Shown: positions 3,781 through 45,401, counted from the stretch's first letter. The stretch: DNA of 64,000 nucleotides from Pirellulales bacterium (GCA_050248495.1 JBFWSG010000004.1:23686-87685), one strand, 5' to 3'. Program-made: numbers and translations. Notes: generated from the sequence alone by a model not told the origin.

Positions 3781-5232
3781 ATGACCGGCACGCATCGCAA
3801 CGAAGAATCCGAGGAGCTCTTGAATCGAGCTGTGGCCACAACTAGGCAACTGCCGCTGCCGACCGGGCCCTCGCCAGCCATCATGTCGCGAACTTTGGTG
3901 GCCTTGCGTGAGGCCGCGAGCCAGCCAGATATCACCTTTTTGCAAAGGATATATCACATGCCATGGACAACCAAAATAGCGGCGGCGTTGGCCACGGCAG
4001 CCAGTTTGTTGGTTGTATACGTGGGCCTATCGAACTTAACGGGCAGCGCACCGGCGTTTGCCGACGTCGTGGAAGTATTGAACAGCGTGCGTAGCGCCAC
4101 CTGGAAAACCACGACGGAGATCAAAGAGCTTCAAGAGGGATCAGTCTCATTGCTGGGCGGTGGAGTCACCACCACCAGAAGCTACGCCGCCGCGAGCGAG
4201 GAGAAGAGGCCTCAAAATGAGACCGGCGCAATGCGTGGCGCCGCGGAACGTGTGTCCACAGATGAGAACAGAGGCCCTCAAAACGAAACCGTCACTTTTG
4301 CCGGAGTTGGAATGTTCCTGGCACCTGCCCACGAACGAATGGAGTCTACCGGTCAGGGTGTGAAATCGATTCAAATCGTGGACGGTGAGAAGGACCAAGC
4401 ACTCACCCTGATTCCGGCCACGAAAATGGCCATCGTTATCCAGCTTAAAAACCTGCCACCAGGGCGCGAGAGTCCTTTCGGCAAGACTTTCCAAGGCTTG
4501 CGAGAGCTTGTTGTAGACGCCCAAAGTGGCAAAACGGGTAAGGCGGAGCGGCTTGGCGTCGAAACGATCGACGGCCGCCCTGCTGAGGGATTTCGAATTC
4601 AACTGGGCTCCACCGAAGTGAAGATCTGGGCCGATCCCAAAACTTTGCTGCCCGTCCGCGTCGAACAGACTACGACCTCCGGGCCGAAAGTCCGCCACGT
4701 GATGTCCGATTTTAAAGTCGACGTGGAACTCAACAAGGAATTGTTCAGCCTTGAATTGCCCAAAGGCTATACGCTCCAACAAACGGCACAGATCGACCTC
4801 GCGAAGGACCCGATCCACTATCTGGCGGAGACGCTGCGGCTCACGGCCGAAGTCAATGACGGTGTCTTTCCGCCCACGTTGCGCGGTGACGACGGCATCG
4901 ACGGAATTCTGATGCGATCGCCAGAAAAGTTGGCGAAAGCCATGGGCTCAGGCGCCGAGACTCCACAGCAATCAAGAGATACGGGAATCAAACTTTCTAT
5001 GAATCTCGGCGCTACGTTCGGCTTCTTAGGTGTACTCTCGGCTGAACAAAACGACTGGCACTACGCGGGCAAGGACGTCAAACTGAACGCGCCAAACCGG
5101 CCGATCTTCTGGCTCAGGCGCCACAAAGCGAGCGAGACCTACCAGGTGCTGTACGCCGATTTGAGCGTCAAAGAGGTTTCGCGGGAAAATGTGCCGAAGG
5201 CGCCGGCTCCGAATCCGCAGCCCGGGCCATGA
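3781..5232 (+). CDS. putative anti-sigma factor / single-pass membrane protein cognate to the upstream ECF sigma factor
   Basis: The gene starts 5 nt after the sigma factor stop. A cytoplasmic N-terminus is followed by one transmembrane helix (IAAALATAASLLVVYVGL) and a large extracytoplasmic domain with an internal RPQNET/GPQNET repeat. Confidence 0.6.
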   Translation: MTGTHRNEESEELLNRAVATTRQLPLPTGPSPAIMSRTLVALREAASQPDITFLQRIYHMPWTTKIAAALATAASLLVVYVGLSNLTGSAPAFADVVEVLNSVRSATWKTTTEIKELQEGSVSLLGGGVTTTRSYAAASEEKRPQNETGAMRGAAERVSTDENRGPQNETVTFAGVGMFLAPAHERMESTGQGVKSIQIVDGEKDQALTLIPATKMAIVIQLKNLPPGRESPFGKTFQGLRELVVDAQSGKTGKAERLGVETIDGRPAEGFRIQLGSTEVKIWADPKTLLPVRVEQTTTSGPKVRHVMSDFKVDVELNKELFSLELPKGYTLQQTAQIDLAKDPIHYLAETLRLTAEVNDGVFPPTLRGDDGIDGILMRSPEKLAKAMGSGAETPQQSRDTGIKLSMNLGATFGFLGVLSAEQNDWHYAGKDVKLNAPNRPIFWLRRHKASETYQVLYADLSVKEVSRENVPKAPAPNPQPGP

Positions 5233-7400: not shown

Positions 7401-7531
7401 CGCTTACACCTTCAGTTCAATCGCACAATTGTCTCACGCCAACGCGCGAATGCGCACAGGGGAGCAGTTGTGTTGAAAATCGTTTCGAATTGTCTTGTTC
7501 TTCGCGCCTTAGCGCCTTTGCGTGAGATAAA

Positions 7532-9811
7532 TTAGTTGTTCGGCGTCACGATCACGTTGTCCACGAAGATTTCCGCCTCGGGACAATTGCCGTAGAGGCC
7601 CGGTGTGCCGTGCAGATTGGGCGACTGATCGACCATCTCGACGGTCCAGTCCTGCGGCTCGGCATCGCCGCGCTTCCAGATCTTGCCCATCACCTTGGCT
7701 TCCTTTTCGCCCGGCTCGACGCGCAGCTTCATCGTGTACCAGGTATCCGGCACCGGGTCGAAGTCGACGCTGGTGTGCTTGCGATAGTCGCTCGTCGTCC
7801 AGGAGTCGAGCCGCAGCTTCTTGCTCAGCCCGCGGATCGTGAGCTGGTAGCGGCCGTCGATCAGCCCGATGTCGGAAATCTTTCCGCTCGCTTCGTCCTT
7901 CTTCAGAAGCACGTCACCCTGGATCGTGTAGTTCGACAGGTCGATCGGCCCCATCCAAACGAAGCTCCGCGTGCCGAGCTTGTTGTTGGGATCTTTCGGC
8001 GTGGGGAGGACGGTCTTCTTGGCGATGTACTTCTCGCCGCCGCTCTCGCGCGGCTCGAAGCGGACCCGGCCGCCGATCCAGGTGAGCGGCACGTCGCCGT
8101 CGTTGAAGTCGAATTTCCAGGGGAGCGGCGGCGTGATCCGCACCCGGGCCGTGCCCGTCAAGTCGCCGAGCTTGCAGGTGACCAAGGCGGTGGCCTGCTT
8201 TGCGTCCTTGGGGGCGATGTACGTGCCGTCGGAGGTGATGCTCCCCGGGCCGTCGACTGCATATTTAAGTGCGTCCGGCGCAAGCTTAGCCTTGATTTCA
8301 CGTCCGCGGGAATCGAACAGCTTTACGTGATACGACTGCTCCCCGCCGGGCTTGAGCAGCGCGTCGTAGGGAATTACTTGGAGCTGGGCGGGGCCGGCCT
8401 TGCCGTCCGGCGTCGACTCCTTGGGCTCCGGCGGCAGCGGATCGGCCGACGGCTTCACCGACGGATCGGCGATGCAATACAGCGCGCGTGAGGTCGGCAG
8501 GAACAAGCGGCCATGCGACACCGCGAGCGAGCCATCGCTCTGGTCGTTCGGGAGCCGCAGCTGCTGGATGACTTTGACGCCGGTTTTCGTCGGCTTGAGG
8601 ACGTACCAGCGGCCTTCCATCGTGCACAGGTACAGCTTGCCGTCGGCCACCAGTGGCGTGCTCCGCATGCTGGTACCCAGCGCCTTGCGAGCGATGAACT
8701 CGCCCGTCTTGGCGTTATAGATGTAGAGCTTTGCCCGGTCGTCGACAAAGTAGACGCGATCGTCAAGGATCACTGGCGAGGACTTGCCCGCCATCACTTG
8801 CAGCTCTTGCCACAGCTCGGTCCCCGTCAGGTCGCCTGATTTCTTGCCGTCGAGCGCGACGACAGCACCCATCGAACTGCCAACGCGGTTCTCTTCGCTG
8901 TGACTGATATATACAGTGCCGTCCGGCGCCACCAGCGGCGAGACATTCATGCCGGAACCGGACATTGGATAATGCCAAAGCGGTTTGCCGGTCCGCGGCT
9001 GCAACGCCCACACTTCGCCGTCGCCCGAGGCAAACACCAGCGCCGCCTGGCCGTCGATCATCGTCACGGTTGGCGTGCTGTAAGTCGTATCGAAAGGACT
9101 GATGCCCGTGCCGTTGAGCCAGCGGAGCTCGCCGGTCTTCTTGTCGAAGGACATGAAGCGATGCGCCGGGCGCGCCAGCCCGCCCCACTTCGGTGCATCG
9201 CCCCAGCCGACCACTACGGCGCTGATCAGCACCGTGTCTTCGAACACCACCGGCACATTCGTCCGGCCGCCGTAGGTCGAGATCAGCCCGAACTCTTCAT
9301 GCAGGCTGCGCTCCCATTTGACTTTGCCGGTCTTGCCGTCGAGGCAACAGAAGTAACCGCTCACGCCCTGGATGTAGACGTCGCCGGTTTCGGGATCGAC
9401 GACCGGGCAGGACCAGCCAATCCGCTCGTCCGGCACGTCGGTCAGATACATGTTGAAGCTGTGTTCCCAGATCGTCTTGCCCGTTGCGGCGTCGACGCAG
9501 ACGACTTTCTCCGACTCTTCCTCCGTGGCCGGCTTATCTCGGACGATCGTGTAGAGGCGGTCCTGAAACACGACCGGCGACGAACGGCCGCCGAGGTCCT
9601 CGCGAATCCAGAGCAGATTGCTCCCCTGGCCGCCGTCCGGATCCCAGCTTTCCGGGAGCCCTTTTTCCGTGGAGACGCGATCCTGCCGCGGACCACGCCA
9701 ATTTGGCCAATCCATCGGGTCCGGACCGGCCGCGGCGACGAAACTCACCAGCGACTCGACGAGCAAAACGGACGCAAAACCAAGGGAAACGACGCGAAAT
9801 CGACCGTTCAT
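7532..9811 (-). CDS. PQQ-like beta-propeller repeat protein with an extra C-terminal beta-rich domain, secreted
   Basis: It is a paralogue of 5607-7400, with motifs such as CLDGKTGKVKWE and YIYNAKTGEF. The start is likely at 9811 (MNGRFRVVSLGFASVLLV signal peptide, AGGTGA Shine-Dalgarno 7 nt upstream); the track ORF extends to 9901. Confidence 0.8.
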   Translation of the reverse strand: MNGRFRVVSLGFASVLLVESLVSFVAAAGPDPMDWPNWRGPRQDRVSTEKGLPESWDPDGGQGSNLLWIREDLGGRSSPVVFQDRLYTIVRDKPATEEESEKVVCVDAATGKTIWEHSFNMYLTDVPDERIGWSCPVVDPETGDVYIQGVSGYFCCLDGKTGKVKWERSLHEEFGLISTYGGRTNVPVVFEDTVLISAVVVGWGDAPKWGGLARPAHRFMSFDKKTGELRWLNGTGISPFDTTYSTPTVTMIDGQAALVFASGDGEVWALQPRTGKPLWHYPMSGSGMNVSPLVAPDGTVYISHSEENRVGSSMGAVVALDGKKSGDLTGTELWQELQVMAGKSSPVILDDRVYFVDDRAKLYIYNAKTGEFIARKALGTSMRSTPLVADGKLYLCTMEGRWYVLKPTKTGVKVIQQLRLPNDQSDGSLAVSHGRLFLPTSRALYCIADPSVKPSADPLPPEPKESTPDGKAGPAQLQVIPYDALLKPGGEQSYHVKLFDSRGREIKAKLAPDALKYAVDGPGSITSDGTYIAPKDAKQATALVTCKLGDLTGTARVRITPPLPWKFDFNDGDVPLTWIGGRVRFEPRESGGEKYIAKKTVLPTPKDPNNKLGTRSFVWMGPIDLSNYTIQGDVLLKKDEASGKISDIGLIDGRYQLTIRGLSKKLRLDSWTTSDYRKHTSVDFDPVPDTWYTMKLRVEPGEKEAKVMGKIWKRGDAEPQDWTVEMVDQSPNLHGTPGLYGNCPEAEIFVDNVIVTPNN

Positions 9812-10364
9812 GGACCCATCACCTGTCGAAAAACGGAAAAACCACCTGGCGAGAGGCTGAGCATCAGGAAGGCGACTGGAGAGTCGACCCAGCCGATACA
9901 AATTACGAGTTCGAGCCGTTTTGGTTCGATTTTCCTGGGGGATGATTCTGCGGCACTGCCAGCACCCGACCTCGCTGCATCGACTCCAGCCTCTCCCGCC
10001 CGACTCCTCAACGTTGCCAACTAGATAAACTCTAACGCCAGGATATCAGACTTCGTGGCCACTCACCACGTCCGGAGGGACTCACAACCGGTACGACCGG
10101 AAGCCCTTCGCCACGTGGCGCGCACTGCAAAGTCACCTTAAAAGTTGCGGCAGGCCCCACACCAAAAAATTCTTCCGATCCCTTCGAGGCGCGGTCGATA
10201 CGAGGGATGTCGCAGTGAGAGCACCCGCGTGCTTTCGCGCGACGGAGAGTCTGAACGTCGGCGCATCGGCCCGGACAAAATTCGAGCCATGGATTGGCTT
10301 GACTGATGCGACGACGTCCTACCTTGGAACCCCCCCAGCACGTCCCGCCTGATTCCGACTCCCG

Positions 10365-11356: not shown

Positions 11357-11396
11357 AGCCTGCCTCGGACCACAAGTCCGAGGCAGGCTTTTTTTG
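11357..11396 (+). terminator. rho-independent terminator of the Cys-rich protein gene
   Basis: cagcctgcctcggac-cacaa-gtccgaggcaggct is a 14-bp perfect stem. It is followed by tttttttg. Confidence 0.8.
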
Positions 11397-11420: not shown

Positions 11421-11510
11421 CCGCAGATGTCGCAGATGGCCGCAGATAACGCTCGGCGAAATCTGCATTCACCTAGGCTCCCAAATCTGCGAACATCTGC
11501 GCAATCTGCG
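11421..11510. promoter_or_regulatory. heptamer dyad array: 3 direct CGCAGAT units followed by 4 inverted ATCTGCG units
   Basis: The direct units are ccgcagat gt cgcagat ggc cgcagat. The inverted units are aaatctgc, aaatctgcg, acatctgcg and caatctgcg. The array ends about 30 bp before the ATG at 11540. Confidence 0.55.
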
Positions 11511-11539
11511 GCAACAAAATACCAAGGCCTCTGGCAAAC

Positions 11540-17064: not shown

Positions 17065-17166
17065 CTCCACCCTCAACCCTCCACCCTCAACCCTCCACCC
17101 TCAACCCTCCACCCTCAACCCTCCACCCTCAACCCTCCACCCTCCACCCTCCACCCTCCACTCCAC
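17065..17166. repeat. C-rich tandem minisatellite: (CTCCACCCTCAACC)x5 then (CTCCACC)x3
   Basis: It lies directly upstream (within 5 nt) of the ATG at 17171. Confidence 0.8.
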
Positions 17167-21727: not shown

Positions 21728-21782
21728 CGCACACTTACATCCAGCACCACCTCGCTTTGGGTGGTGCTGGATTAAGTGTGCG
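21728..21782. terminator. long hairpin with a 23-bp stem and one bulge, directly downstream of the 21788..22432 gene
   Basis: cgcacacttaCatccagcaccacc-tcgctttg-ggtggtgctggattaagtgtgcg. Its left arm is part of a 39-bp direct repeat shared with 25788-25825. Confidence 0.55.
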
Positions 21783-21787
21783 GGGAT

Positions 21788-22432
21788 TTACGCGTGCCGA
21801 TAGCGTAGGTCGGGTATTCGGACGCCATAGCCAGCGCAGACATCGCACTCAGCTTCTATGCGCCCGAACTTATGGCCAGTGCCCTTGCATATCTGGCATT
21901 TGGGATAGTGGGACAATTCACCGGGAAGCTCGCCGGTGCCACCACACTTGCTGCAAATAGCTTCTATGCGATTCCATTTCAGACCAGAGCCTTTACACAG
22001 AGGGCATCTCATGGGCGGAATCGAATCTGCCGGATCGTTGCTTCCCGTTTTGCCTTCACGCACCATTCTTCGGTGAAGCATGAAATCGGCGATGGTTGCT
22101 GGTGTAAATCGCGGGATTTTAGGGAGGGCGGTAGACTTCACTACTGTGGTAATGGTCGCTGGCGATGGCGAAGCTGTAACTCCGTGAAATGTTTCCAGAA
22201 GTCCCCGCAATTTCGGAAGATTGACAACGACAATGATCGTCAGCCCAAGTAGGCAAAGTCCGGTTCGTACGATGTCATGGCTAAGAATCGTTGCGACAGC
22301 GTTGAACGCCATCCCCCAATTCCGGATGTCATCCGGCAGGCCACCCAAGCCAATAATACCAATTACAGTACCTAGCACGTTCCCTACTCGGCGCACGTTG
22401 CGCCACGGTGGTACGTTCCAATCGACAGCCAT
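21788..22432 (-). CDS. membrane protein (2 predicted transmembrane helices) with four DnaJ-type CXXCXGXG zinc-finger repeats
   Basis: The repeats are CPLCKGSG, CSKCGGTG, CQICKGTG and CDVCAGYG in the C-terminal 80 aa. The transmembrane helices are VLGTVIGIIGLGGL and LCLLGLTIIVVVNL. GC is about 52%. Confidence 0.6.
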   Translation of the reverse strand: MAVDWNVPPWRNVRRVGNVLGTVIGIIGLGGLPDDIRNWGMAFNAVATILSHDIVRTGLCLLGLTIIVVVNLPKLRGLLETFHGVTASPSPATITTVVKSTALPKIPRFTPATIADFMLHRRMVREGKTGSNDPADSIPPMRCPLCKGSGLKWNRIEAICSKCGGTGELPGELSHYPKCQICKGTGHKFGRIEAECDVCAGYGVRIPDLRYRHA

Positions 22433-22518
22433 GCCATGCTCCTACGACTTGACGCGCGCAGCCGTAGGCCATACCATGCAATCACCTAGATTGTGCATGG
22501 CCTACGTGGTCATTCAAA

Positions 22519-22551
22519 AGCTGACGGCTCCACCCGTCAGCTTTTTTGTTG
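22519..22551. terminator. hairpin plus T-run (agctgacgg-ctccac-ccgtcagct-ttttttg)
   Basis: The 9-bp stem lies between the zinc-finger membrane gene and the transposase. It is palindromic and could function on either strand. Confidence 0.45.
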
Positions 22552-22601
22552 CGTGAATTATATCGACTCTCTGCACAAAGCTACAGTGGCGGGGGCACCA
22601 C

Positions 22602-23561
22602 CTAGTCCGCCATCACATTCTCAATCATTTCTCGCACCGACCACACCTTTGTTGCAACGCCGTGGGCAACGGCCGGCGTCAGCCCTTTCAATGTCTTGTG
22701 TTGACGGCAATAGTTGTAATGACAGAAGTACACGGCCAGCGCGGCACGGTGGTTGTTCCACTTCTTTGAGAAGCAGTAGGTCAAGCGGCCCATGCGCTTC
22801 ATGTGGGTGCGGATGCTGCCGTTCATTCGCTCAACGTGCGAGGTGCATATCTGATCTTGTTGGAATGGCGTGCCGTGCATCGGGGTCCGGCTGGCCCCTA
22901 TTATCCGAGCCGGTGAGTACCGGCGCTGGTCCTCGTAGACATTGACGCCGTATATCTTTTGCATCACGCCGTGGTCGACGCGGTGTCCAAGCTGCTTTTT
23001 GATTTCGCTTGGATAGCTCCGCCAGCCGTCGCTACTAACGTGGAAGTGACCGAACGTGGCCCGGTCCAGTTTGGCGATGAACTGCTCGGTGTGCTGCTGG
23101 CTGCGGCGGCCCATGTGCCAAGTAATGAGCAGCTTTGATTGGCGGTCGATGGCGGTGTAGCAATAGCTGTCGCCGCAGCCGCCAACCATCTTCTGCGCTT
23201 TTGTGGTCGCGTTTTTTGCTAAAATAAATTGCCAAATTTCGTCCACCTGGGTGTCGCTGACAAACACGTCCTTAATGTGTTCGGCCATGTACTTTTCGCA
23301 GTGCTCGCCGAGCATCGTGAGCAGCGAGAGGATCGTCATTAAGTCGGTGCCGGTGAAGCGGGCGGTGGCGCGAACATTCATGCCCTCGCACAGCAGCTCG
23401 ACGATCTTGGCGGCTTGCTCAACGCCGATCCGCATGCCGCCCAGCATGGCGGTGGATTCGGTCCAGGACGCGCCGCAGCTCTTGCAGCGGTAGCGGGTGG
23501 CCCCGGCCTTAGTTTTCCCATTCGTGCGGCGGTTCTCATGCTGACAGACGGCGGCAATCAT
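22602..23561 (-). CDS. DDE transposase, IS1595-family-like
   Basis: An N-terminal zinc ribbon (RYRCKSCGASWTE) is followed by a DDE-like core (DEIW..., AIDR, SDGWRSY). The C-terminal motif is YFCHYNYCRQHKTLKGLTPAVAHG. Confidence 0.75.
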   Translation of the reverse strand: MIAAVCQHENRRTNGKTKAGATRYRCKSCGASWTESTAMLGGMRIGVEQAAKIVELLCEGMNVRATARFTGTDLMTILSLLTMLGEHCEKYMAEHIKDVFVSDTQVDEIWQFILAKNATTKAQKMVGGCGDSYCYTAIDRQSKLLITWHMGRRSQQHTEQFIAKLDRATFGHFHVSSDGWRSYPSEIKKQLGHRVDHGVMQKIYGVNVYEDQRRYSPARIIGASRTPMHGTPFQQDQICTSHVERMNGSIRTHMKRMGRLTYCFSKKWNNHRAALAVYFCHYNYCRQHKTLKGLTPAVAHGVATKVWSVREMIENVMAD

Positions 23562-23756
23562 TGCGAAACTTCCCCGTTCTTAGGGCCTTCGCTATGATTC
23601 AGTTCTCTAGGCTGGAATCTGGCGAAAGCCGGTTCTAGTTGCCCCCGGTCGCGTGCCAACGCTTCCGGGGGTTTACTTTTGCCTACATTTATTCTACCCA
23701 TAATTAATCGGCATTGCAAGGGTTGACGCAAGATTATTTATGGGTATATTTATGGC

Positions 23757-23933
23757 ATGGAAAACAAACGAGGCAGGCCGCCTAAGGCCCCAGAAGACCG
23801 CAGGACTGAGGACATCAAAATCCCACTGAGCGAAGCGGAGAAGCAGCAGATTCAATCTGCGGCCGAATCCGACGACGCCAAGCCCGTTACATGGGCCAGG
23901 AACGTGCTCTTGAGGGCCGCCAAGAGGCGGCTG
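23757..23933 (+). CDS. small ribbon-helix-helix DNA-binding protein (MobC/CopG-like), 58 aa
   Basis: This ORF is absent from the track because it is under 60 aa. It translates to MENKRGRPPKAPEDRRTEDIKIPLSEAEKQQIQSAAESDDAKPVTWARNVLLRAAKRRL. The RGRPPK, K-I-P-L-S-x-x-E and VTWARNVLLRAA pattern is typical of MobC-type RHH proteins. Confidence 0.5.
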
Positions 23934-24199
23934 TGAGCGGAGAGCAGGGGTTACGATCCCAGCCGCGAAAAGTTTGCACGGCCCCCTTCGGCGGGTTATA
24001 AACCACGCTACGCCAGCCAAGACGCGGGCCGCTCTCCGATAGAGAACGGTCTGTTGAGGCTTAGAATGTGGCGAACATGTTTCTAAGACACCTACGCTAC
24101 TGCTTGGTTCGCGGCTGGTTATTGATGCACCCAGAGCGATGCGCCAGAGGCCGTTATGGACGATTGATAAGGCGCACCCGAAGATACAGGCAAAGTAGG

Positions 24200-25699
24200 A
24201 TGACTACGGTCGATGCAGCGATCAATCCAAGTAAAAGTTTACCCGACCACTGGAGCGAATCGATGTCCGACATCACGTCGGTAAACGAGCAAATCGCTGC
24301 ATTGACGCAACGATTAGCCAATGTGAATGAGTCGGCAAATGCGTATGCGACTGCCGGACACGTGTTCGCCGCGGCCATAGCGCTCTTCACGGCCGCAGTA
24401 TTCTTTACATCGTATTTGGGGGCAAGTAAAACGCGGCAGGTTAAGAAAATCAGCGACGAACTTGCAACTGCTAGGGAAGCGCAGCTGAGTTTGATTCTTG
24501 CTGACAAAGACGCCAAGATCGGTGCAGCTAACGCGACGGCAGCTACAGCGAATGCCGAAGCAGCCAAGGCAAACGAGGGCCTCGCAAAGGCAGGCCTCGA
24601 TATTGAGGACCGCAAGAATGAGAACCTGAAATTGGAGTCGCAGGTTACCACTCTCCGAACAGCGGCCGCCAAAGCTGATGCAGCACTTGAGGAAACCCGA
24701 ATTAAGGCGGCAGAAGCGCTTGAGGGTCTCGCGGAAACCGGGGAATGGCAGCGAATACAAGAAATGATTCGCTCGGAGATCGAAGAAGAGCTGACCCCGC
24801 GAGGCGTTAACATAGAGTTGGCTAGTGCCAACATTCTAAAAGAGTTTCGCGGGACGAAATTCTTCGTGACAACGCCAACAGAAGTAGAGCCGATAAGGCT
24901 GGGTAAGGGAATTGAAGATTTGCTGTTAGAGTCAGGGTGGGAGCGTGTCGCGCCACTCTCGGCGATTGTCGAATCCGAAGAGTTTGAATTCGATAACAAC
25001 GTGACATTCAAGTCAAACTTTCGATCCGAGGAAGAATTAAAACCGGCAGTATATGCACTTGCCATCGTCCTGCAAAAAGAGCGAATTGACTGTTTCCATT
25101 TCATCGACACTTCTCCCAAGAGAGGGCAACCGCCAATTCCTAAAGGTGCCATTAGCATCGTCGTGGGACCAAAGCGCACAACGTACTCCAGGCAATTGAC
25201 CGACAGGGCGGACTCACCTCGGTGGGATGCTCGGCAGAAAGCGATGGTAGAGCTTGAGGGCCGCCGCGAAACAAAAGCACCACCAGATGCCTCCCTGCTC
25301 GGCCCCATGTCTGAAAATGCGTGGCGCGTCTTTGCAGAATGCGCGCCAACTTCAGGAGACGCAGTGTTAGTTGGAAATTCAATGAACGATCCGGCGGATG
25401 AATGGGTCGTCGGCGTCCGCGATGGATTGTTGGTGGCCGGATGGACCGTGGTATCGACCGTGCTATTCGACGAACAGCGTATGCTCGGCATTGAGCGCAA
25501 CGCCGTAATTCTTCGTAAGAACGCGCCAGCAGCACGCAGGCAACAGGCGGAGAAATTGCACAAGGCGCTCTCTGATGCCGGGTTCCAGCCAGTTTTTGTG
25601 GAGACAGAATCGCCGCCGAAAGGATTCGCGGTGTGCGTGTTAATTGGCGGTCCCGGAGATGGCGCGCAGGGCGACACTGGCCCGGCCAAACCGGAGTAG
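24200..25699 (+). CDS. hypothetical membrane-anchored coiled-coil protein (about 500 aa)
   Basis: The start is likely MTTVDAAI at 24200; the track start at 24068 gives an implausible Arg-rich leader. It has one transmembrane helix (HVFAAAIALFTAAVFFTSYL), about 120 aa of Ala/Lys/Glu coiled coil, then a C-terminal domain of about 300 aa with two related sub-modules. No family was recognised. Confidence 0.6.
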   Translation: MTTVDAAINPSKSLPDHWSESMSDITSVNEQIAALTQRLANVNESANAYATAGHVFAAAIALFTAAVFFTSYLGASKTRQVKKISDELATAREAQLSLILADKDAKIGAANATAATANAEAAKANEGLAKAGLDIEDRKNENLKLESQVTTLRTAAAKADAALEETRIKAAEALEGLAETGEWQRIQEMIRSEIEEELTPRGVNIELASANILKEFRGTKFFVTTPTEVEPIRLGKGIEDLLLESGWERVAPLSAIVESEEFEFDNNVTFKSNFRSEEELKPAVYALAIVLQKERIDCFHFIDTSPKRGQPPIPKGAISIVVGPKRTTYSRQLTDRADSPRWDARQKAMVELEGRRETKAPPDASLLGPMSENAWRVFAECAPTSGDAVLVGNSMNDPADEWVVGVRDGLLVAGWTVVSTVLFDEQRMLGIERNAVILRKNAPAARRQQAEKLHKALSDAGFQPVFVETESPPKGFAVCVLIGGPGDGAQGDTGPAKPE

Positions 25700-25787
25700 A
25701 AAGTGTTAATCACGGCGCACCCCCTGCGGAGTCGCCGCTTTTCGGACTCGCGGAACGCACCCACGACCGGACAAGGCGCCTCACTGC

Positions 25788-25825
25788 TGCCGGGGGACCG
25801 ACTCGCACACTTAATCCAGCACCAC
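25788..25825. repeat. direct repeat of 21713-21751 (gccgggggWccgactcgcacacttaMatccagcaccacc)
   Basis: Of 38 nt, 37 match copy A with one extra base, and the match extends a further 10 nt (gccctttgg vs tcgctttgg). The two copies bracket 4.07 kb holding the zinc-finger membrane gene, the transposase, the RHH gene and the coiled-coil gene. Confidence 0.6.
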
Positions 25826-26431
25826 CGCCCTTTGGCACACCCGTTGCATCTAATCCGTCGTCGCCTGAACGATCAGGCACCAAGCGTTCGGAACAAACGC
25901 TCGGGGCCGAACAGAGAAGAGGCATTTTGTCTGGGGTCGGTCGGCGAAGAGGCAAATCTGCCGTGTTCGGATCTGCATATCAGGAAAGAAGTTAGCGAGA
26001 TCTGCCCACCTCCCACAGAAACTCGCAAACCAGGCGCATTTCCGACACGTCACGGGCGAGTCGCGGTCTTCCGAGAGGCTAGACCACGACTCGCCCATCT
26101 TTTTTGACTGTTGCAAAATCGTACATGTGTATTTTTCCAATACACTTTTCTGGGACACTTCGTCACCCACCTGCCAGTCGACAAATCACGTCCGCAGAAT
26201 TTTTCCAAGATTTTCTCGGCCGCCAATTCGCGGAATCGCTCGACCCGCAAATCCACGACTGCTCAACTGTGTGTCCCCCGGTTGAGCAGTCGCAAAAAGC
26301 CGGCAAAAAGTGGTAGCCGCCCGTTGAACAGTCGCCCCCTTTTTTTCCGACACCTCGCACCGCCTGCGGACGTTAGAACGTGGGGCAGCCAAATCCGCGC
26401 GGTCGATCATAATCAAGCAATGAGGATCTCA

Positions 26432-26491
26432 CCGCTAATCCGCGCTAATGGACGCTAATTTCCATTAGCGCTCCTTAGCGACAATTAGCGG
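26432..26491. promoter_or_regulatory. heptamer dyad array: 3 direct CGCTAAT units followed by 3 inverted (A)TTAGCG units
   Basis: ccgctaat ccgcgctaat ggacgctaat ttcc attagcg ctcc ttagcg acaattagcg. The centre (cgctaat-ttcc-attagcg) is a perfect palindrome. The array ends about 25 bp before the GTG start at 26515. Confidence 0.55.
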
Positions 26492-26514
26492 TTTGCTTTA
26501 CCGGGACCAAGGCT

Positions 26515-28275
26515 GTGGCGCACGTCACTCGACCATCGCAGGTGCTCGCATTCGCCGCGGTCGCACTGTTGACACAGGCTGCATTCTTTCATCGCACGGC
26601 TCGCGCCGCGGACCAGGTCGTCGCCAGCGCTGCGACGGCGCCCGCGCGATCGGCCGGTGACGCCAACACGCCGCCGGAAGTGGCCCTGATCGACGAGGCG
26701 ATTTCGGCCGCCTGGGCGGACCAGAATCTCGCTCCCTCCCCGCCGGCTAGCGATGGCGAGTGGTGCCGCCGCGTGTATCTCGACATCCTGGGCCGCATCC
26801 CGACCGTCACCGAGCTGCGCCAATATTTTGCCGACCGGAAACGCGACAAGCGGGCCCGGCTGGTCGACCGGTTGCTCGGCCCCGAATATCGCGACGAGTA
26901 CGTCCACAACTGGACGACGATCTGGAGCAACGTCCTCATCGGCCGGACGGGCGGCACCGATCGCCGCTCGCTCACCAGCCGCGAAGGGATGCAGGTGTAT
27001 CTGAGCGAGGCGCTGGCTTACAACCGGCCGTACGACCAGATGATGCGCGAGCTGGTCACCGCCACGGGCGCCTGCCGGCCGGAGGACAAGAATTTCAACG
27101 GCGCGGCCAATTTCCTGGCCGACAAGATGGAAGAGAATGGCGTGCAGGCCACGGCCAAAACGGCCCAGATTTTTCTGGGCATGGCGGTGCAGTGCACGCA
27201 GTGTCACAACCATCCCTTCAACGAGTACCAGCAGAACCAGTTCTGGGAGCTCAACGCCTTCTTCCGCCAGACCCGCGTGCGGCGGATTCGGCTCGATGAC
27301 CAGCGGCAGCGGTTCGCGGGCCGCGTGGTCGACCGCGACTACCGCGGCGAGACGGGCGACGTTGCGAAAGCCGACCTGTTCTACGAGCTCCGCAACGGCC
27401 AGATGAAGGTCGCCTACCCGGTATTCGTCGACGGCACGTCGCTGGCCGAAGTCTACAAGGAGAAGGGTGAGGATTTTGGCGATCATGGCAAACTCAGCGA
27501 CGTCAACCGCCGCGAGGAGCTGGCCAAGTTGATCGCCGGGTCGCGTGAGTTTGATCGGGCAATCGTGAATCAGATTTGGGGCCATTTCTTCGGTTACGGA
27601 TTCACGAAGCCGGTCGACGACATCGGCCCGCACAACACGCCGTCCCACCCCGAGCTCCTCGACCAGCTCGGCCAATCGCTGCGCCGCGCGGAGTTCGACC
27701 TCAAGCAACTGATGCGGTGGATCGCGCTCTCGGAAGCGTACAGCCTGTCGAGCCGCACGACGAAGAAGAACGAGGCCGACGATCCGGAGCTGGGAGCGCG
27801 GCCGATGTTCACCCATTTCTACCTGCGGCAGATGGAGGCCGAGCAGCTGTACGAGTCGCTGCTGGTGGCGACCGCGGCCGACCAGACGGTGCAGAGCGAC
27901 GAGCGACGGGACGAGGTCCGCGAGCGGTGGCTGCGACAATTCAGCAAGGCTTTCGGCACAGACGACGGCGGCGAATCGACGAGTTTTAATGGCACGATCC
28001 CACAGGCGCTCGCGTTGATGAACGGGCCGCTGGTAAAACGGGCCACGGGCAACCAGGGGGGCAGCATGCTGGCCTGGGTGGCCGAGCATCCGAAGATGAA
28101 CAGCGCCGAGAAGATCCGCTACTTGTACCTGGCGGCGCTGTCGCGGCGACCGACGAAACCGGAGATCGCCTTGTCGAACGATCTGCTGGCGGCCCGCAAC
28201 GGGAATGTCGGGGCGGCGCTGCAAGACATTTGGTGGGCACTTTTGAATAGTAACGAGTTCATATTGATACACTAA
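26515..28275 (+). CDS. DUF1549/DUF1553 domain protein (planctomycete PSD1-like family)
   Basis: CTQCHNHPFNEYQQNQFWELNAFF is a DUF1549 signature. WALLNSNEFILIH is the DUF1553 C-terminal signature. A signal peptide is present and the gene starts with GTG. Confidence 0.8.
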   Translation: MAHVTRPSQVLAFAAVALLTQAAFFHRTARAADQVVASAATAPARSAGDANTPPEVALIDEAISAAWADQNLAPSPPASDGEWCRRVYLDILGRIPTVTELRQYFADRKRDKRARLVDRLLGPEYRDEYVHNWTTIWSNVLIGRTGGTDRRSLTSREGMQVYLSEALAYNRPYDQMMRELVTATGACRPEDKNFNGAANFLADKMEENGVQATAKTAQIFLGMAVQCTQCHNHPFNEYQQNQFWELNAFFRQTRVRRIRLDDQRQRFAGRVVDRDYRGETGDVAKADLFYELRNGQMKVAYPVFVDGTSLAEVYKEKGEDFGDHGKLSDVNRREELAKLIAGSREFDRAIVNQIWGHFFGYGFTKPVDDIGPHNTPSHPELLDQLGQSLRRAEFDLKQLMRWIALSEAYSLSSRTTKKNEADDPELGARPMFTHFYLRQMEAEQLYESLLVATAADQTVQSDERRDEVRERWLRQFSKAFGTDDGGESTSFNGTIPQALALMNGPLVKRATGNQGGSMLAWVAEHPKMNSAEKIRYLYLAALSRRPTKPEIALSNDLLAARNGNVGAALQDIWWALLNSNEFILIH

Positions 28276-28282
28276 AGGGAAT

Positions 28283-28364
28283 GACGAATGACCAATTCCT
28301 AATGACGAATGAATACGGTAGGCGGACGTACATACGTCATTGGGCATTCGGAATTCGTCATTCC
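28283..28364. repeat. TGACGAATGA / TCATTCGTCA repeat cluster (family also at 44897-44995 and 63480-63580)
   Basis: aatgacgaatgacc...taatgacgaatgaatac...cgtcattggg...ggaattcgtcattcc. The last unit is the exact reverse complement of ggaatgacgaattcc at 44899. Confidence 0.6.
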
Positions 28365-28382
28365 GCAGCGAAGGTTGCCACT

Positions 28383-29654
28383 ATGAAATGCGACTGCAGT
28401 ATTCCCCCCGGCATGACCCGGCGTCATTTCATGCGTCACCTGGCCGGTGCGTCGGCGCTGGCGCTCCCGGCGTTTGCGTTCACGCGGACACTGCGGGCCA
28501 ACGCTCCGGCGCTCTCGAAGGCGCACAAGTCGGCGATTCTGATCTGGCTCGGCGGTGGTCCACCGACGATCGACATGTGGGACCTCAAGCCGGGCGCCCC
28601 GACCGCCGGCCCGCTCAAGCCGATCAACACGACCGGCGATTTTCAGATCAGCGAGCGGTTGCCCAAGCTGGCCGAGCAGGGGAAGCACCTGGCGATCGTC
28701 CGCGCGATGAGCACCCGCGAGGCCGACCACGAGCGCGGCCGCTACTACATGCACACCGGCTACGTGCCGAACCCGAGCGTCGAGTATCCCAGCTACGGCT
28801 CTGTGATTTCGCACGAGCTCGAAGACCTGGTGCCGCAGCTCGAGATTCCGCCGTTCGTGTCGATCGGGGGCCCCAGCGAAGGGCCGGGCTTTTTGGGAAT
28901 GGCCTACGCGCCGTTCCAGGTCGACGCCAACGGCAACGTCCGCGACACCGAGATGAGCGTTCCCTGGCAGCGGATGGTCGATCGGCTCAAGCTCCTTGAA
29001 GCCGTCGAAACGCGATTCATCCGCGAGCGGCGCGGCAGCGCCGCCGAGGAGCACGCCAAGGTGCTTAAGAAGACGCAGGATTTGCTCACGAGCGACCAGA
29101 TGAAGGCGTTTCAGGTCCGCAGCGAGGAGCAGAAGGTCCAGGATCGCTACGGCAACACGAACGTCGGCCGCAGCTGCCTGATGGCGCGACGCCTGGTGGA
29201 GGTCGGCGTGCCGTTCGTCGAGGTCGACTTCGGCGGCTGGGACCTGCACAAGGACTGCTTCACGACGCTCGACACGAAGCTGCCGGAGCTTGACCAGGCG
29301 TACAGCGCGCTCCTGGAAGACCTCGCCCAGCGCGGATTGCTCTCGAACACGGTGGTGCTGTGCATGGGCGAGTTCGGCCGTACGCCGCGGATCAACGGCG
29401 ACGCCGGCCGCGACCATTTTGCCCGCGCGTGGAGCGCGGTCCTCTCGGGCGGCGGCATCCGCGGCGGCCACGCGATCGGCAAGACCAACGCCGACGGGAC
29501 AAGTGTCGACACTGAGCCGTTCTCATCCGAAGACCTGATGGCCTCGGTGCTGAAGGCGCTCGACATCTCGCTGGAAACTACCTTCACAACGCCCAGCGGC
29601 CGCCCGATGAAAATCGCTAACAGCGGCCGGGTCATTGGCGAGCTGTTTGCGTAA
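28383..29654 (+). CDS. DUF1501 domain protein (sulfatase-like fold, Tat-type signal), usual partner of DUF1549/DUF1553
   Basis: The Tat signal is MTRRHFMRHLAGASALALPAFAF. DUF1501 hallmarks are present (LIWLGGGPPTIDMWDLKP, GGGIRGG). The start is placed at 28383 because the track's first 34 codons lie in the repeat cluster. Confidence 0.8.
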   Translation: MKCDCSIPPGMTRRHFMRHLAGASALALPAFAFTRTLRANAPALSKAHKSAILIWLGGGPPTIDMWDLKPGAPTAGPLKPINTTGDFQISERLPKLAEQGKHLAIVRAMSTREADHERGRYYMHTGYVPNPSVEYPSYGSVISHELEDLVPQLEIPPFVSIGGPSEGPGFLGMAYAPFQVDANGNVRDTEMSVPWQRMVDRLKLLEAVETRFIRERRGSAAEEHAKVLKKTQDLLTSDQMKAFQVRSEEQKVQDRYGNTNVGRSCLMARRLVEVGVPFVEVDFGGWDLHKDCFTTLDTKLPELDQAYSALLEDLAQRGLLSNTVVLCMGEFGRTPRINGDAGRDHFARAWSAVLSGGGIRGGHAIGKTNADGTSVDTEPFSSEDLMASVLKALDISLETTFTTPSGRPMKIANSGRVIGELFA

Positions 29655-30052: not shown

Positions 30053-30402
30053 CGCGGTCCGTCGCGCGGTTCGTTGTGGGAGGCCTCTCCGGGTCCGGTT
30101 GACGCCTCCGAATGCCGCGCTCAATCGGCGTCGCAGTCGCCTCCCACAATTCTGATTTGTGACGCAACTCATTGCGCTGCCTGCGGATGATCGCGGTCCG
30201 ATTTGCGGCAAGATTCCCGCGGCGAGTGCGAAATACTCTCAATTCCGCAGGCCGCCAGGACAGCGGCAGTGCAAGTGTGCCGATTCTGCCGGTCGCAGGG
30301 CGTGGGGCCTGGTGGCGATTCGCAACGAAGAACGGCAAAAGCTACAATTTCGGACGGTTCGCGTCCGCTGCGGCGACACCGCGCACATGTGGGAGCTCGG
30401 CC

Positions 30403-32836: not shown

Positions 32837-32985
32837 CGCTGCGAGGCTGGGTGGCTGGCGGTCGAGGTTGAGCCGAGCCCCCAGGGAATTGTCGCGCAGT
32901 GGTACTGCTGGGGGCTCGTAGACCAAGCATCCTGCTCGGTGCCCTCTCGACCGCCAGCCACCCAGTTCACGCGCGGAAGTATCGG

Positions 32986-37719: not shown

Positions 37720-37807
37720 CGGGTTGTAGGAGGCCTCTCTGAGGCCGATTACGCGCTCGAATTGACAACGTTATCGGCGTCGGAGACGCCTCCTACAGGA
37801 AGCAGTC

Positions 37808-43945: not shown

Positions 43946-44893
43946 CTAGGCCAGACCAGGCGAATCGATCATGGGCGATGGCGTTAACAGCGCGGCCGAC
44001 GTTGTCGAGGGCGCGCCCGTCATGTAAGCGACAAAAATCTCTTCGAGCGACGGCGTCCGCGACTCCACGGCGGTGACGCCGGTCGTAAAGCGGAGCGCAT
44101 CGATCGCCGCTTCATCGAGGCCGCGGGTGATGAGCTCGTATTGCCGCCCTCGATGCCGTTCGTGAATCACCTGTCCCTCCAGCGGCGGCAGCGGGCGATG
44201 CGGGTCCTCCATCGTCACGGTGACTTGCCGCGTGCTGCGTTTGATATCTTCCAAACGGTCGACCAGGAGCACGCGGCCGGCGTGGACGATCGCAACGATA
44301 TCCGCCACCCGTTCCACCTCGCCGATCTGGTGACTGGAGAGGAGCACCGTTCGTCCCTCGGCGGCGACGTCGACCATGCTTTCGAGAAACTCACGGCGGA
44401 CCATCATGTCGAAGCCGCTCGTAGGCTCGTCCAGGATCAATAGCTCCGGCTTGTGGGCCATGGCGAGCGACAACGCCACTTTGCCGCGCATGCCCTTGGA
44501 CATCTGACTGAGCTTGCGGTCGAGCGGTACGCGGAAGCCCTCGACCAGGCGGCGGAATTCGAATTCGAAGCCGTCTGGATAGAAGCCCGCGGTAAACCAG
44601 CCGATCTCGGCGGCGGTCATCCAGTCGTAGAGCGTGGGCCGCTCCGGCAGGTAGCCCACTCGGCGACGAATTTCAAAGCCCTCGCGGCGGCTATCGAGCC
44701 CCAGCACGCGGACCTCGCCCGCCGTGGGCGACGCCAGGCCGAGCATCAACCGGATCGCCGTCGTCTTGCCGGCGCCGTTTTCGCCCAACAGCGCGAAGAC
44801 CACACCGGGCGGCACCGCGAGCGAGACCTGGTCCAGCGCGGCCTGCTGGCCATAGAGCTTGGTGACGCGATCGAGCTCGATAACCGGGTTCAT
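43946..44893 (-). CDS. ABC transporter ATP-binding protein
   Basis: Walker A (GENGAGKTT), the ABC signature (LSQMSKGMRGK), Walker B (LLILDEPTSGFD) and the H-loop are all present. Confidence 0.9.
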   Translation of the reverse strand: MNPVIELDRVTKLYGQQAALDQVSLAVPPGVVFALLGENGAGKTTAIRLMLGLASPTAGEVRVLGLDSRREGFEIRRRVGYLPERPTLYDWMTAAEIGWFTAGFYPDGFEFEFRRLVEGFRVPLDRKLSQMSKGMRGKVALSLAMAHKPELLILDEPTSGFDMMVRREFLESMVDVAAEGRTVLLSSHQIGEVERVADIVAIVHAGRVLLVDRLEDIKRSTRQVTVTMEDPHRPLPPLEGQVIHERHRGRQYELITRGLDEAAIDALRFTTGVTAVESRTPSLEEIFVAYMTGAPSTTSAALLTPSPMIDSPGLA

Positions 44894-44896
44894 AAG

Positions 44897-44995
44897 TTAC
44901 TCCAGGAATGACGAATTCCCAATGACGAATGACGAATGACGAATGAGGTTTCGTGGTGCCGAGCTTCGTCATTAGTCATTCGACATTAGTCATTG
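44897..44995. repeat. TGACGAATGA / TCATTCGTCA repeat cluster
   Basis: ggaatgacgaattcc caatgacgaatgacgaatgacgaatga ... cgtcattagtcattcgacattagtcattgac. Confidence 0.6.
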
Positions 44996-45008: not shown

Positions 45009-45401
45009 TTAATTCTTCTTCGCACGACGCAACGTGGCTATTTCCGCGCGGACCAGTTGTTCGATTTCGGCGTTGTCGAGGCCGCTGGTGGCCGCTTCTT
45101 CCAGGACCAATTTGAGTCGGGCGCGGATCAGTTTGGTCCGTTCCGACTGGCACTGGCGACGGGCGGCCGGCGCGACGGCCAGGCCCGTGCCGCGGACCGA
45201 TTCGAGCACGCCGTCGTCTTGCAATTGGCGATAGGCACGGGCGACGGTGTTTGGATTGATCGCCAGGTCGCGGGCCAGCTCGCGGACGCTCGGGACCAGC
45301 TCGCCCGACGCCAGGGCCCCGTCGGCGATGGCGAACTTCACCTGCCGCACGATCTGGTCGTACACGGCCAGCCCGTTATGTGCGTCGATGGTGAAGAACA
45401 T
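45009..45401 (-). CDS. GntR-family transcriptional regulator, YtrA subfamily
   Basis: The winged HTH is PSVRELARDLAINPNTVARAYRQL. A short C-terminal helix is present. It leads an ABC-transporter operon, as in ytrA-type systems. Confidence 0.85.
   Translation of the reverse strand: MFFTIDAHNGLAVYDQIVRQVKFAIADGALASGELVPSVRELARDLAINPNTVARAYRQLQDDGVLESVRGTGLAVAPAARRQCQSERTKLIRARLKLVLEEAATSGLDNAEIEQLVRAEIATLRRAKKN

Follow-up and report, generated by a model that had tools for sequence, protein, structure and literature searches.

Repetitive extragenic palindromes (REPs, with the BIME and REPIN forms) are mobilized by RAYT transposases, and bacterial miniature inverted-repeat transposable elements (MITEs), e.g., Correia, ERIC, and Nezha, are nonautonomous elements with terminal inverted repeats, for which arms composed of three phased subrepeats are unusual. 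Cluster A mycobacteriophages carry stoperators, each a single asymmetric 13-bp site to which the phage repressor binds, and the PeSL "mobile regulatory cassettes" of T4-type phages consist of a stem-loop and an early promoter. The omega repressor of pSM19035, a ribbon-helix-helix protein, acts on contiguous 7-bp heptads at only a few promoters or centromeres of the plasmid that encodes it. REP families tagged with GTAG or CGTC have been reported also in Planctomycetes (PMC3733652). TAACTGA heptamer repeats of Beggiatoaceae, Cyanobacteria, and Bacteroidetes numbered 169 direct sets and a single indirect one, and each genome had essentially one unit (PMC4679880), and intergenic heptamer tandem repeats of the STRR type are known from Nostoc (bioRxiv 10.1101/2022.06.06.494920). 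Here, we analyzed an array of inverted heptamers (CGCTAAT/ATTAGCG) at positions 26432 to 26491 of a 64-kb stretch of DNA (the window) from an uncultured Pirellulales bacterium, together with related loci (designated by L numbers). The array lies upstream of a gene pair coding for a DUF1549/DUF1553 and a DUF1501 protein, and it is probably one copy of a dispersed, modular intergenic repeat superfamily and not a locus-specific operator.

The six-heptamer dyad is real and nonrandom. It reads cac-CGCTAAT-ccg-CGCTAAT-gga-CGCTAAT-ttcc-ATTAGCG-ctc-CTTAGCG-aca-ATTAGCG-g, with units starting at 26433, 26443, 26453, 26464, 26474, and 26484 and a period within the arms of exactly 10 bp. All units are exact except the one at 26474 to 26480 (CTTAGCG), which carries one mismatch. 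The whole dyad has arms of 29 nt that are 79% complementary, although the spacers of the facing arms are not complementary (ccg/aca, gga/ctc). With a period of 10 (1 modulo 3), each arm has its three TAA in three different frames, on each strand, and every one of the six frames of the array contains a stop codon. Of the eight exact CGCTAAT matches in the 64 kb, five are packed into 58 bp of the array; the other three correspond to chance level, and there is no CGCTAAT regulon within the window. A loose scan (at least three direct plus three inverted heptamers) found four arrays in the window, compared with zero to one per shuffle in eight dinucleotide shuffles. The initial annotation had delimited the array correctly to within 1 nt and had noted its center, CGCTAAT-TTCC-ATTAGCG, which is indeed a perfect palindrome. 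It had also taken the array for the second instance of a recurring architecture, and further instances are present at 11421 to 11511 (probably the one it had meant as the first), 28279 to 28363, and 44907 to 44994.

Arrays of this build constitute a superfamily with many unit variants and unrelated gene neighbors, represented in many Pirellulales genomes and in phage-like contigs, and its copies are gained, lost, duplicated, and nested in one another. A strict chained scan of the window and related loci (1.07 Mb) yielded 50 arrays, compared with none in a locally shuffled control. Their density was 10.1 per 100 kb in loci with an orthologue at least 62% identical, versus 0.6 per 100 kb in the rest. 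Almost all arrays were intergenic, and the neighboring genes were as diverse as NfeD/Band_7, M48 peptidase/VanZ, GntR/ABC ATPase, and phage head and tail genes. Arms of CGCAGATG, for example, occur at 11421 in the window, between NfeD and Band_7 in L007 (two copies), and between M48 peptidase and VanZ in L010. The two AATGACG arrays of the window (28279 and 44907) have an irregular 23-nt stretch, GACGAATTCCYAATGACGAATGA, in common and are therefore copies rather than independent growths. In 19 orthologous loci, the window among them, an array occupies the spacer between the DUF1549/1553 and DUF1501 genes; at least 10 different units are represented, and some of the arrays are nested. The array found there in the window is kept in L076, L077, and L080, and other unit families occupy the place in other lineages. 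Nesting was most evident in L010 (1292 to 1520), where CACGGAG arms enclose CGCAGATG arms, and in L016 (9473 to 9835), where CGCRGAG arms enclose CGCCAAG-type arms, which in turn enclose an ACAGGAT dyad, giving three layers. In the mnmA-DsbH gap, the window carries a GTAG-tagged REP doublet and L076 a heptamer array, which shows that heptamer arrays share their niche with classical REPs.

Turnover was also seen for the array itself. The closest orthologous loci show 85 to 90% protein identity and a 4-fold-site identity of 0.61 to 0.65 to the window. L077 carries the array at the same place, partly decayed, and L078/L079 carry it twice, with one copy on each side of a promoter-like block (26372 to 26416); the L078 copies share flanks. 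Thus, the array is not unique to the window, a possibility that the initial annotation had left standing. In contrast, its lack of conservation was borne out in L076 and L080 (86 to 88% amino acid identity), from which it is cleanly missing as a ∼60-bp gap, as well as in L001, L002, L003, L040, L051, and all more distant orthologues. Because L077, L076, and L080 form one clade (4-fold-site identity, 0.74 to 0.77), ancestral presence followed by loss is the simplest history.

Where the array has been retained, its parts have diverged unequally. Heptamers of the window consensus were 81 to 93% identical to those of L077 and L078, compared with 0.61 to 0.65 at 4-fold sites (P = 0.001 to 1e-5), whereas spacers were 56% identical. 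Mirrored units were 90% complementary and mirrored spacers 42%. Thus, the 7-nt units are conserved above the neutral rate, but the spacers are not. This pattern bears on the idea of a neutral by-product, in which replication slippage and intrastrand template switching would inflate hairpins without recognition or function. Symmetric copy numbers on both arms, the slippage-prone appearance of contiguous 7-bp arrays, and direct-only tandem runs, as found at 17068 to 17165 in the window and at 20923 in L007 (13 copies), are in line with such a process. However, a recent 10-bp duplication would produce identical spacers, and spacers are 37% identical within arms and 42% complementary between arms, while units stay identical. 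Moreover, different genomes and phage-like contigs have units, spacings, and flanks in common, and one grammar (see below) is common to 78% of spaced arms. Because spacers have diverged while units are identical, and because units, spacing, and flanks are shared across genomes, a purely neutral origin is highly improbable.

The constraint on the units would also fit an operator, which the initial annotation had implied by tying the array to the DUF1549/1553-DUF1501 pair. A transcription factor (six protomers or a dimer of trimers) would occupy six CGCTAAT sites on one helix face just past the promoter and repress or activate the operon, and the second L078 array, upstream of the promoter, would permit DNA looping. 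The exact 10-bp period, perfect units, and free spacers are compatible with this, as are the conservation of units in L077 and L078 and the L078 copies on either side of the promoter-like block. That block, 17 nt upstream of the array, is the best-conserved noncoding stretch in the five closest loci, where it is nearly invariant, and its GTTAGAA(T) part (core, GGGGTTAGAATA) is kept in distant orthologues as well. We presume that it represents the promoter region, possibly a planctomycete promoter or a leader element; it is unlike the sigma-70 consensus, and a sigma-70 scan of 26050 to 26600 detected no promoter. Yet the seven loci named above that lack the array (L076, L080, L001, L002, L003, L040, and L051) have all kept the GTTAGAA...CATAAT block. 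None of the neighboring open reading frames (ORFs) of the operon codes for a DNA-binding domain, and no regulator gene adjoins it. The same three-unit CGCTAAT arm lies past unrelated genes in phage-like contigs, equivalent positions in other lineages hold arrays of the same build with other units, and the remaining CGCTAAT matches of the window do not exceed chance. Polymorphism among relatives that keep the block, the missing neighboring regulator, the arms beside unrelated genes, and the exchange of units at the same positions therefore make a dedicated operator distinctly unlikely, and the link drawn by the initial annotation was not supported.

The arm emerged as the module of which the arrays are built. 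Triple repeats with a period of 8 to 11 nt were counted in the set fetched without a DNA pattern (window and L001 to L080), and 47 of the 60 intergenic arms (78%) fit the heptamer grammar C-R-C-N-N-A-K, compared with a chance expectation of 8.6%. In an arm, a flank that usually ends in AAC or ATC precedes three repeats of C-R-C-N-N-A-K, each with 2 to 3 nt added; the units include CACGGAG, CACAGAG, CACGAAG, CGCCAAG, CGCAGAG, CGCAGAT, and CGCTAAT. The last three bases of the 5′ flank were AAC in 38, ATC in 21, and CAC in 10 of 105 arms; the 3′ flank is commonly GAAG or AAGA, and the unit spacing of 8 to 11 bp amounts to about one helical turn. Arms occur as face-to-face dyads, nested in up to three layers, or solo, and the interiors that they enclose range from 4 nt, as in the array described here, to ∼100 nt. 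Among cultivable bacteria, Adhaeretor mobilis HG15A2 carries at least one arm (L014, 3544 to 3566).

Arms of this kind were also common in phage-like contigs. Exact three-unit arms of CGCTAAT were present in 14 IMG/VR contigs, and those of CGCAGATG in 8. In L089 (1557 to 7734), a genuine head-tail module of a phage, most gaps hold CGC(T/G)AAT dyads. L096 is a Mu- or gene transfer agent-like tail module in which CGCAGAT, ACAGGAT, and CGCAGAG arms, together with a GTAG REP, crowd the gaps. The six arms of L087 (minus strand) are solo and lie without exception on the gene strand; three begin 1 nt past a TAA within a TTAAC flank and a fourth starts 8 nt past a TGA, with the next start codon, where evident (three arms), ∼45 to 65 nt further downstream. 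Among GenBank phages (INPHARED), no real match to the CGCTAAT or CGCAGATG arm was found.

The position of solo arms raised the question of punctuation at gene boundaries on one strand. Here, the arm RNA, or the sense-strand single-stranded DNA, would form a three-site platform for a putative factor past the upstream gene, with a role in termination, reinitiation, or processing; it would be used by chromosome and phages alike, and a facing arm would mask or duplicate it. Solo arms were oriented in sense in 23 cases and in antisense in 8 (P = 0.011), and for 19 of 105 arms, a stop codon of a long ORF lay within the preceding 10 nt on the arm strand, versus 6 of 105 for the opposite strand (P = 0.009), although these counts are small and partly nonindependent, with six arms from one contig. 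In the window, the solo arm at 7500 to 7522 begins 9 nt past the TAA of a PQQ-propeller gene (7532 to 9901), ∼100 nt before the gene start at 7400. Solo arms often begin 1 to 10 nt past a stop codon, which is frequently embedded in a TTAAC or TGATC flank, arms lie in most gaps of a phage structural operon, and the arm unit remains unchanged across contigs of 45 to 63% G+C. On the other hand, the array at 26432 to 26491 has no nearby upstream gene end (2.9 kb separate it from the nearest confident gene call, and an uncharacterized ORF terminates 325 nt before it), a candidate factor is missing, and so large a number of unit variants would call either for many factors or for one that is adaptable. 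As the sole explanation of the array, such punctuation is rather unlikely.

Other readings of the arm were also considered. A three-frame stop does hold for CGCTAAT, AATGACG, TTAGCTA, and TGATAGT units, but was rejected as the purpose of the arm, as CACGGAG, GGAGCGA, and CCGTGGT units contain no stop codon. Reading TTAAC plus units as an extracytoplasmic function (ECF)-type or sigma-70-type promoter was dismissed, since the spacings do not fit. AAC...GTT ends had also brought integron attC sites to mind, which have RYYYAAC...GTTRRRY boundaries and lie between mobile cassettes, next to an integron integrase or in a cassette array. Ends of the type ...TTAAC/GTTAA... are seen in many family members, and the array here ends in CTCAC/GTTTG. 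This idea was rejected because the neighbors are not cassettes but syntenic housekeeping genes or structural genes of phages. GGA is frequent at unit junctions in several families and nearly absent from the window copy, and a CsrA-like GGA or Shine-Dalgarno-like reading of the purine-rich arm strand is speculation.

As RNA, the segment from 26431 to 26492 is predicted to fold with a minimum free energy of −32.5 kcal/mol into three 7- to 9-bp helices, split by a 3×3 internal loop and a 1×1 mismatch, and the 101-nt leader has a folding z-score of −4.1 relative to shuffles. Selection might therefore act on RNA structure: a 5′-leader hairpin that shields the 5′ end of the mRNA, acts together with UUUGCUUUA as a terminator or attenuator, or is processed by RNase III, with intercistronic arrays working like REP or T7 R-site hairpins. 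A U-rich tract directly follows the hairpin, and the presence of some long palindrome in the intercistronic gap of the operon in nearly every lineage of the clade suggests that structure is wanted there. Fold z-scores below −3 were found for 6 of 25 intergenic gaps of the window (24%), compared with 4% of coding controls; an earlier impression that nearly all gaps hold palindromes had to be toned down to this figure. A long interrupted hairpin is indeed followed by UUUGCUUUA, but a terminator scan of 26050 to 26600 identified no canonical terminator, and the TTTGCTTTA stretch is T rich in relatives with and without the array. Neither did Rfam 15 give a match, at the gathering threshold over the window or at E values of up to 1 over 26100 to 28500, so that a known RNA family was rejected, for the promoter-like block as well.

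More generally, RNA that is selected for folding might be expected to favor one strand. For 32 arrays, the sense strand was favored in 18 and the antisense strand in 14, with 84 versus 74 G·U pairs (P = 0.23 to 0.47 for energy and G·U count), and this absence of asymmetry gives no support to RNA-hairpin selection. In addition, three helices would not require identical sequences, partnerless solo arms are common, and arrays were rare in convergent gaps (1/44, a small sample), where terminators are expected. Because there is no excess of G·U pairs or stability, spacers are not complementary, and solo arms exist, a hairpin selected purely as RNA is not supported, and we consider it unlikely.

Compared with the described systems, the array is closest in behavior to REPs/REPINs and MITEs, and its contiguous sister arrays are closest to the STRR/TAACTGA class, but it fails the defining features of each. 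Like REPs and REPINs, heptamer arrays are short, extragenic, hairpin capable, multicopy, and dispersed, and they form several families (at the superfamily level, across related genomes); they are often found between codirectional genes, either alone or in inverted doublets and clusters, and differ among close relatives. Unlike them, their ends carry no GTAG or CGTC tag, each arm consists of three nonpalindromic 7-mers with ∼10-bp phasing instead of a 20- to 40-bp stem-loop, arms also occur solo with a strand bias, and arrays are rare in convergent gaps. True GTAG REPs occupy equivalent gaps in the window (30079 and 37729) and look different; no gene for a RAYT (Y1 HUH transposase) was found within the 64 kb. 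With MITEs, the arrays share a size of 60 to 130 bp, terminal inverted arms around a variable interior, nesting, presence/absence polymorphism, and families common to several genomes. They differ in that target site duplications are not detectable, the flanks instead extending the palindrome, and in that no autonomous partner with the same ends was found, the sole transposon of the window (21760 to 25826) having unrelated ends.

STRR and TAACTGA repeats resemble the arrays in their 7-nt units, their intergenic position near start codons, and their many loci with unrelated downstream genes; a posttranscriptional role is suspected for them, and their function is as obscure as that of heptamer arrays. 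The contiguous sister arrays of the window (AATGACG and ACCCTCA) look like members of this class. In contrast to its contiguous, direct repeats, the array at 26432 to 26491 has units at a 10-bp period, inverted arms, and, within its superfamily, many unit variants. Stoperators and PeSLs provide a parallel for one short sequence family in many phage gaps, as seen in L087, L089, and L096 to L098, but they lack three-unit arms and, to our knowledge, are not shared with host chromosomes at housekeeping operons. Omega operators likewise combine direct and inverted 7-bp units, which are bound cooperatively, and thus set a precedent for protein recognition of heptamer arrays; their heptads are contiguous, however, whereas heptamer arrays are dispersed by the dozen beside unrelated genes. 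Taken together, the array belongs among dispersed intergenic palindromic repeats, with a modest chance that it exemplifies a gene-boundary signal of a new kind. Literature searches, some of them for literal sequence strings, turned up no account of these arrays.

Several observations weigh against a dispersed, mobile repeat. In Pirellulales chromosomes, the CGCTAAT unit was found at this orthologous locus only, although the Mariniblastus array (L020) is related and L013 has a weaker CGCTAAT/CGCCAAT cluster. No transposase or autonomous element with the ends of the array was seen in 1.3 Mb of loci. The filled site of the window shows no target site duplication relative to the empty sites of L076 and L080, and across families there was none either (flanks extend the palindrome), except for TTAG/TTAG in L089, so that the mode of spread is putative. 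Persistence of the array in three lineages with conserved units would also fit a locally useful regulatory site. Furthermore, a single operon served to select the related loci, and two of the unit patterns served to select the phage-like contigs, so that the IMG/VR loci entered the solo-arm and stop codon counts, small as these are, by way of those patterns. The C-R-C-N-N-A-K pattern was defined post hoc, and gene calls in related loci are our own, based on G+C content at third codon positions (GC3), and not curated.

Features of the window are compiled in Table 1. The array lies upstream of and outside the DUF1549/1553 coding sequence: GTG 26515, 24 nt past the array (initially estimated at about 25 bp), is the first possible start past an in-frame TAG at 26476 inside the array, and protein similarity to orthologues begins at this GTG. 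Placement within a coding sequence, a possibility that the initial annotation had raised, is ruled out by this TAG and by the stops in all six frames. For the DUF1501 gene, the mechanical ORF start, ATG 28281, falls within the 28279 to 28363 array; ATG 28383 is in frame, lies 20 nt past the array, and agrees with orthologues.

Table 1. Coordinates of the array, its surroundings, and related elements in the 64-kb window
Feature	Position	Strand	Description
Solo arm	7500-7522	-	CGCAAAG-g-CGCTAAG-g-CGCGAAG; on gene strand
CGCAGAT(G) dyad	11421-11511		Three units, 37-nt center with a seventh ATCTGCA, three inverted units
Direct-only tandem run	17068-17165		CCACCCTCAACCCT / CCACCCT; 7- and 14-bp period, ∼13 heptamers
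Transposon-like element	21760-25826		∼4.07 kb; perfect 23-bp inverted repeats GGTGGTGCTGGATTAAGTGTGCG
Promoter-like block	26372-26416	+	45 nt, GTTAGAAC...GATCATAATCAA; full GTTAGAACGTGGGGCAGCCAAATCCGCGCGGTCGATCATAATCAA
Hairpin-capable element	26431-26492	+	Two flanking pairs beyond the arms; corresponds to the ∼60-bp indel relative to L076 and L080
Left arm	26433-26459	+	Three exact CGCTAAT (26433, 26443, 26453); spacers ccg and gga
Left-arm TAA codons	26436, 26446, 26456	+	One per plus-strand frame
Dyad center TTCC	26460-26463	.	Tetraloop if folded
Right arm	26464-26490	-	ATTAGCG, CTTAGCG (1 mismatch), ATTAGCG; spacers ctc and aca
Right-arm TTA	26465, 26475, 26485	-	TAA in all three minus-strand frames
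U-rich tract	26492-26500	+	TTTGCTTTA; directly past hairpin
PSCyt2 (DUF1549) plus PSD1 (DUF1553) gene	26515-28275	+	GTG start
Contiguous-heptamer dyad GAATGAC/GTCATTC	28279-28363	+	Fills gap from DUF1549/1553 stop to DUF1501 start
DUF1501 gene	28383-29654	+	Likely true start, ATG 28383
GTAG-tagged REP doublets, REPIN-like	30079-30160, 37729-37800		GTRGGAGGCCTCTCYGAGGCCGAT ... TCGGCGTCGGAGACGCCTCCYAC
Long palindrome	32845-32960		∼115 bp, GGCTGGGTGGCTGGCGGTCGAG ... CTCGACCGCCAGCCACCCAG; convergent gap past Band_7 gene, fold z = −6.5
AATGACG dyad	44907-44994		Between GntR-family gene (45009-45401, -) and ABC-transporter ATPase gene (43946-44893, -)

Among the other repeats of the window, the array at 11421 to 11511 is preceded by a canonical hairpin plus T run (11360 to 11395) and ends 28 nt upstream of an ORF starting at ATG 11540 (261 amino acids, no Pfam match). 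The direct run at 17068 to 17165 ends 6 nt before ATG 17171, and the GGTTGAG/GGTGGAG dyad arrays of L002, L040, and L076 carry its unit in reverse complement; like the arrays at 28279 and 44907, it consists of contiguous heptamers. GTAG-tagged REP doublets occur also in L076 and L047, and at the place of the long palindrome (32845 to 32960), L076 has an unrelated nested palindrome. The 64 kb contain no second DUF1549/1553 locus. Upstream of the operon, gene order differs in every relative. In the window, a transposon-like element of lower G+C content (0.55 to 0.56) sits ∼600 bp upstream of the array and codes for a DDE transposase-like ORF (22602 to 23561, minus strand), a DnaJ-type zinc-finger ORF, and further uncharacterized ORFs; a tie between this element and the array was rejected on account of its unrelated 23-bp inverted repeats. 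Also upstream of the operon, L080 has direct repeats of TTGGCAAC(C)TATGG (20 to 110), of which single copies occur in L076 (∼2440 to 2460) and L078 (∼4790 to 4800).

Our best reading is thus a repeat that is REP- and MITE-like in behavior, with an unusual three-unit arm, and that belongs to an apparently undescribed family filling gene gaps in this Pirellulales group and in phage-like contigs. Its module is the arm, and two CGCTAAT arms face each other across 4 nt here. The units may serve as contact points, three per arm, for a putative sequence-specific factor that either moves or copies the element, giving rise to MITE/REP-like spread, or uses arms as gene-boundary punctuation. A copy may have entered the 5′ leader of the DUF1549/1553-DUF1501 operon in the ancestor of the window, L077, and L078, and may later have been lost from L076 and L080. 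Locally, its effect is probably that of a leader hairpin of −32.5 kcal/mol with a U-rich tail and stops in six frames, as the fold prediction suggests. If transcribed, the array would serve as a leader hairpin of a generic kind, with an insulating or attenuating effect and possibly an influence on mRNA stability, and would not be a signal-responsive switch.

A further-reaching proposal, which we put forward tentatively and consider unlikely, is that the three-unit arm (xAAC plus three copies of C-R-C-N-N-A-K with 2 to 3 nt) constitutes a new cis-acting "gene-boundary" signal of Pirellulales and of the phages that carry such arms, and that sequence-specific factors of one family read it on the gene strand. 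Factor specificity would then vary at four heptamer positions, the signal would be placed right past stop codons, and two facing arms would mask the signal or make it bidirectional. If this were true, the unit variants would form a small recognition code and would not be merely selfish DNA.

Intergenic repeats such as REPs, MITEs, and cyanobacterial heptamers shape operon expression and genome plasticity by mechanisms that are mostly obscure. In an uncultured soil and freshwater clade of Pirellulales and in phage-like contigs, a single grammar covers most spaced repeat arms. For annotation, this has practical consequences, since arms cause start codon miscalls (e.g., ATG 28281 inside an array) and could pass for operators in comparative-genomic regulon searches. 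As arms differ between close relatives, they may be useful as strain markers. For the DUF1549/1553-DUF1501 family, the outcome is negative, in that the array tells nothing specific about regulation of the pair. If a factor reads the arms, they would open a new approach to the control of gene boundaries in Planctomycetota, a phylum in which promoters, terminators, and regulators have hardly been charted.

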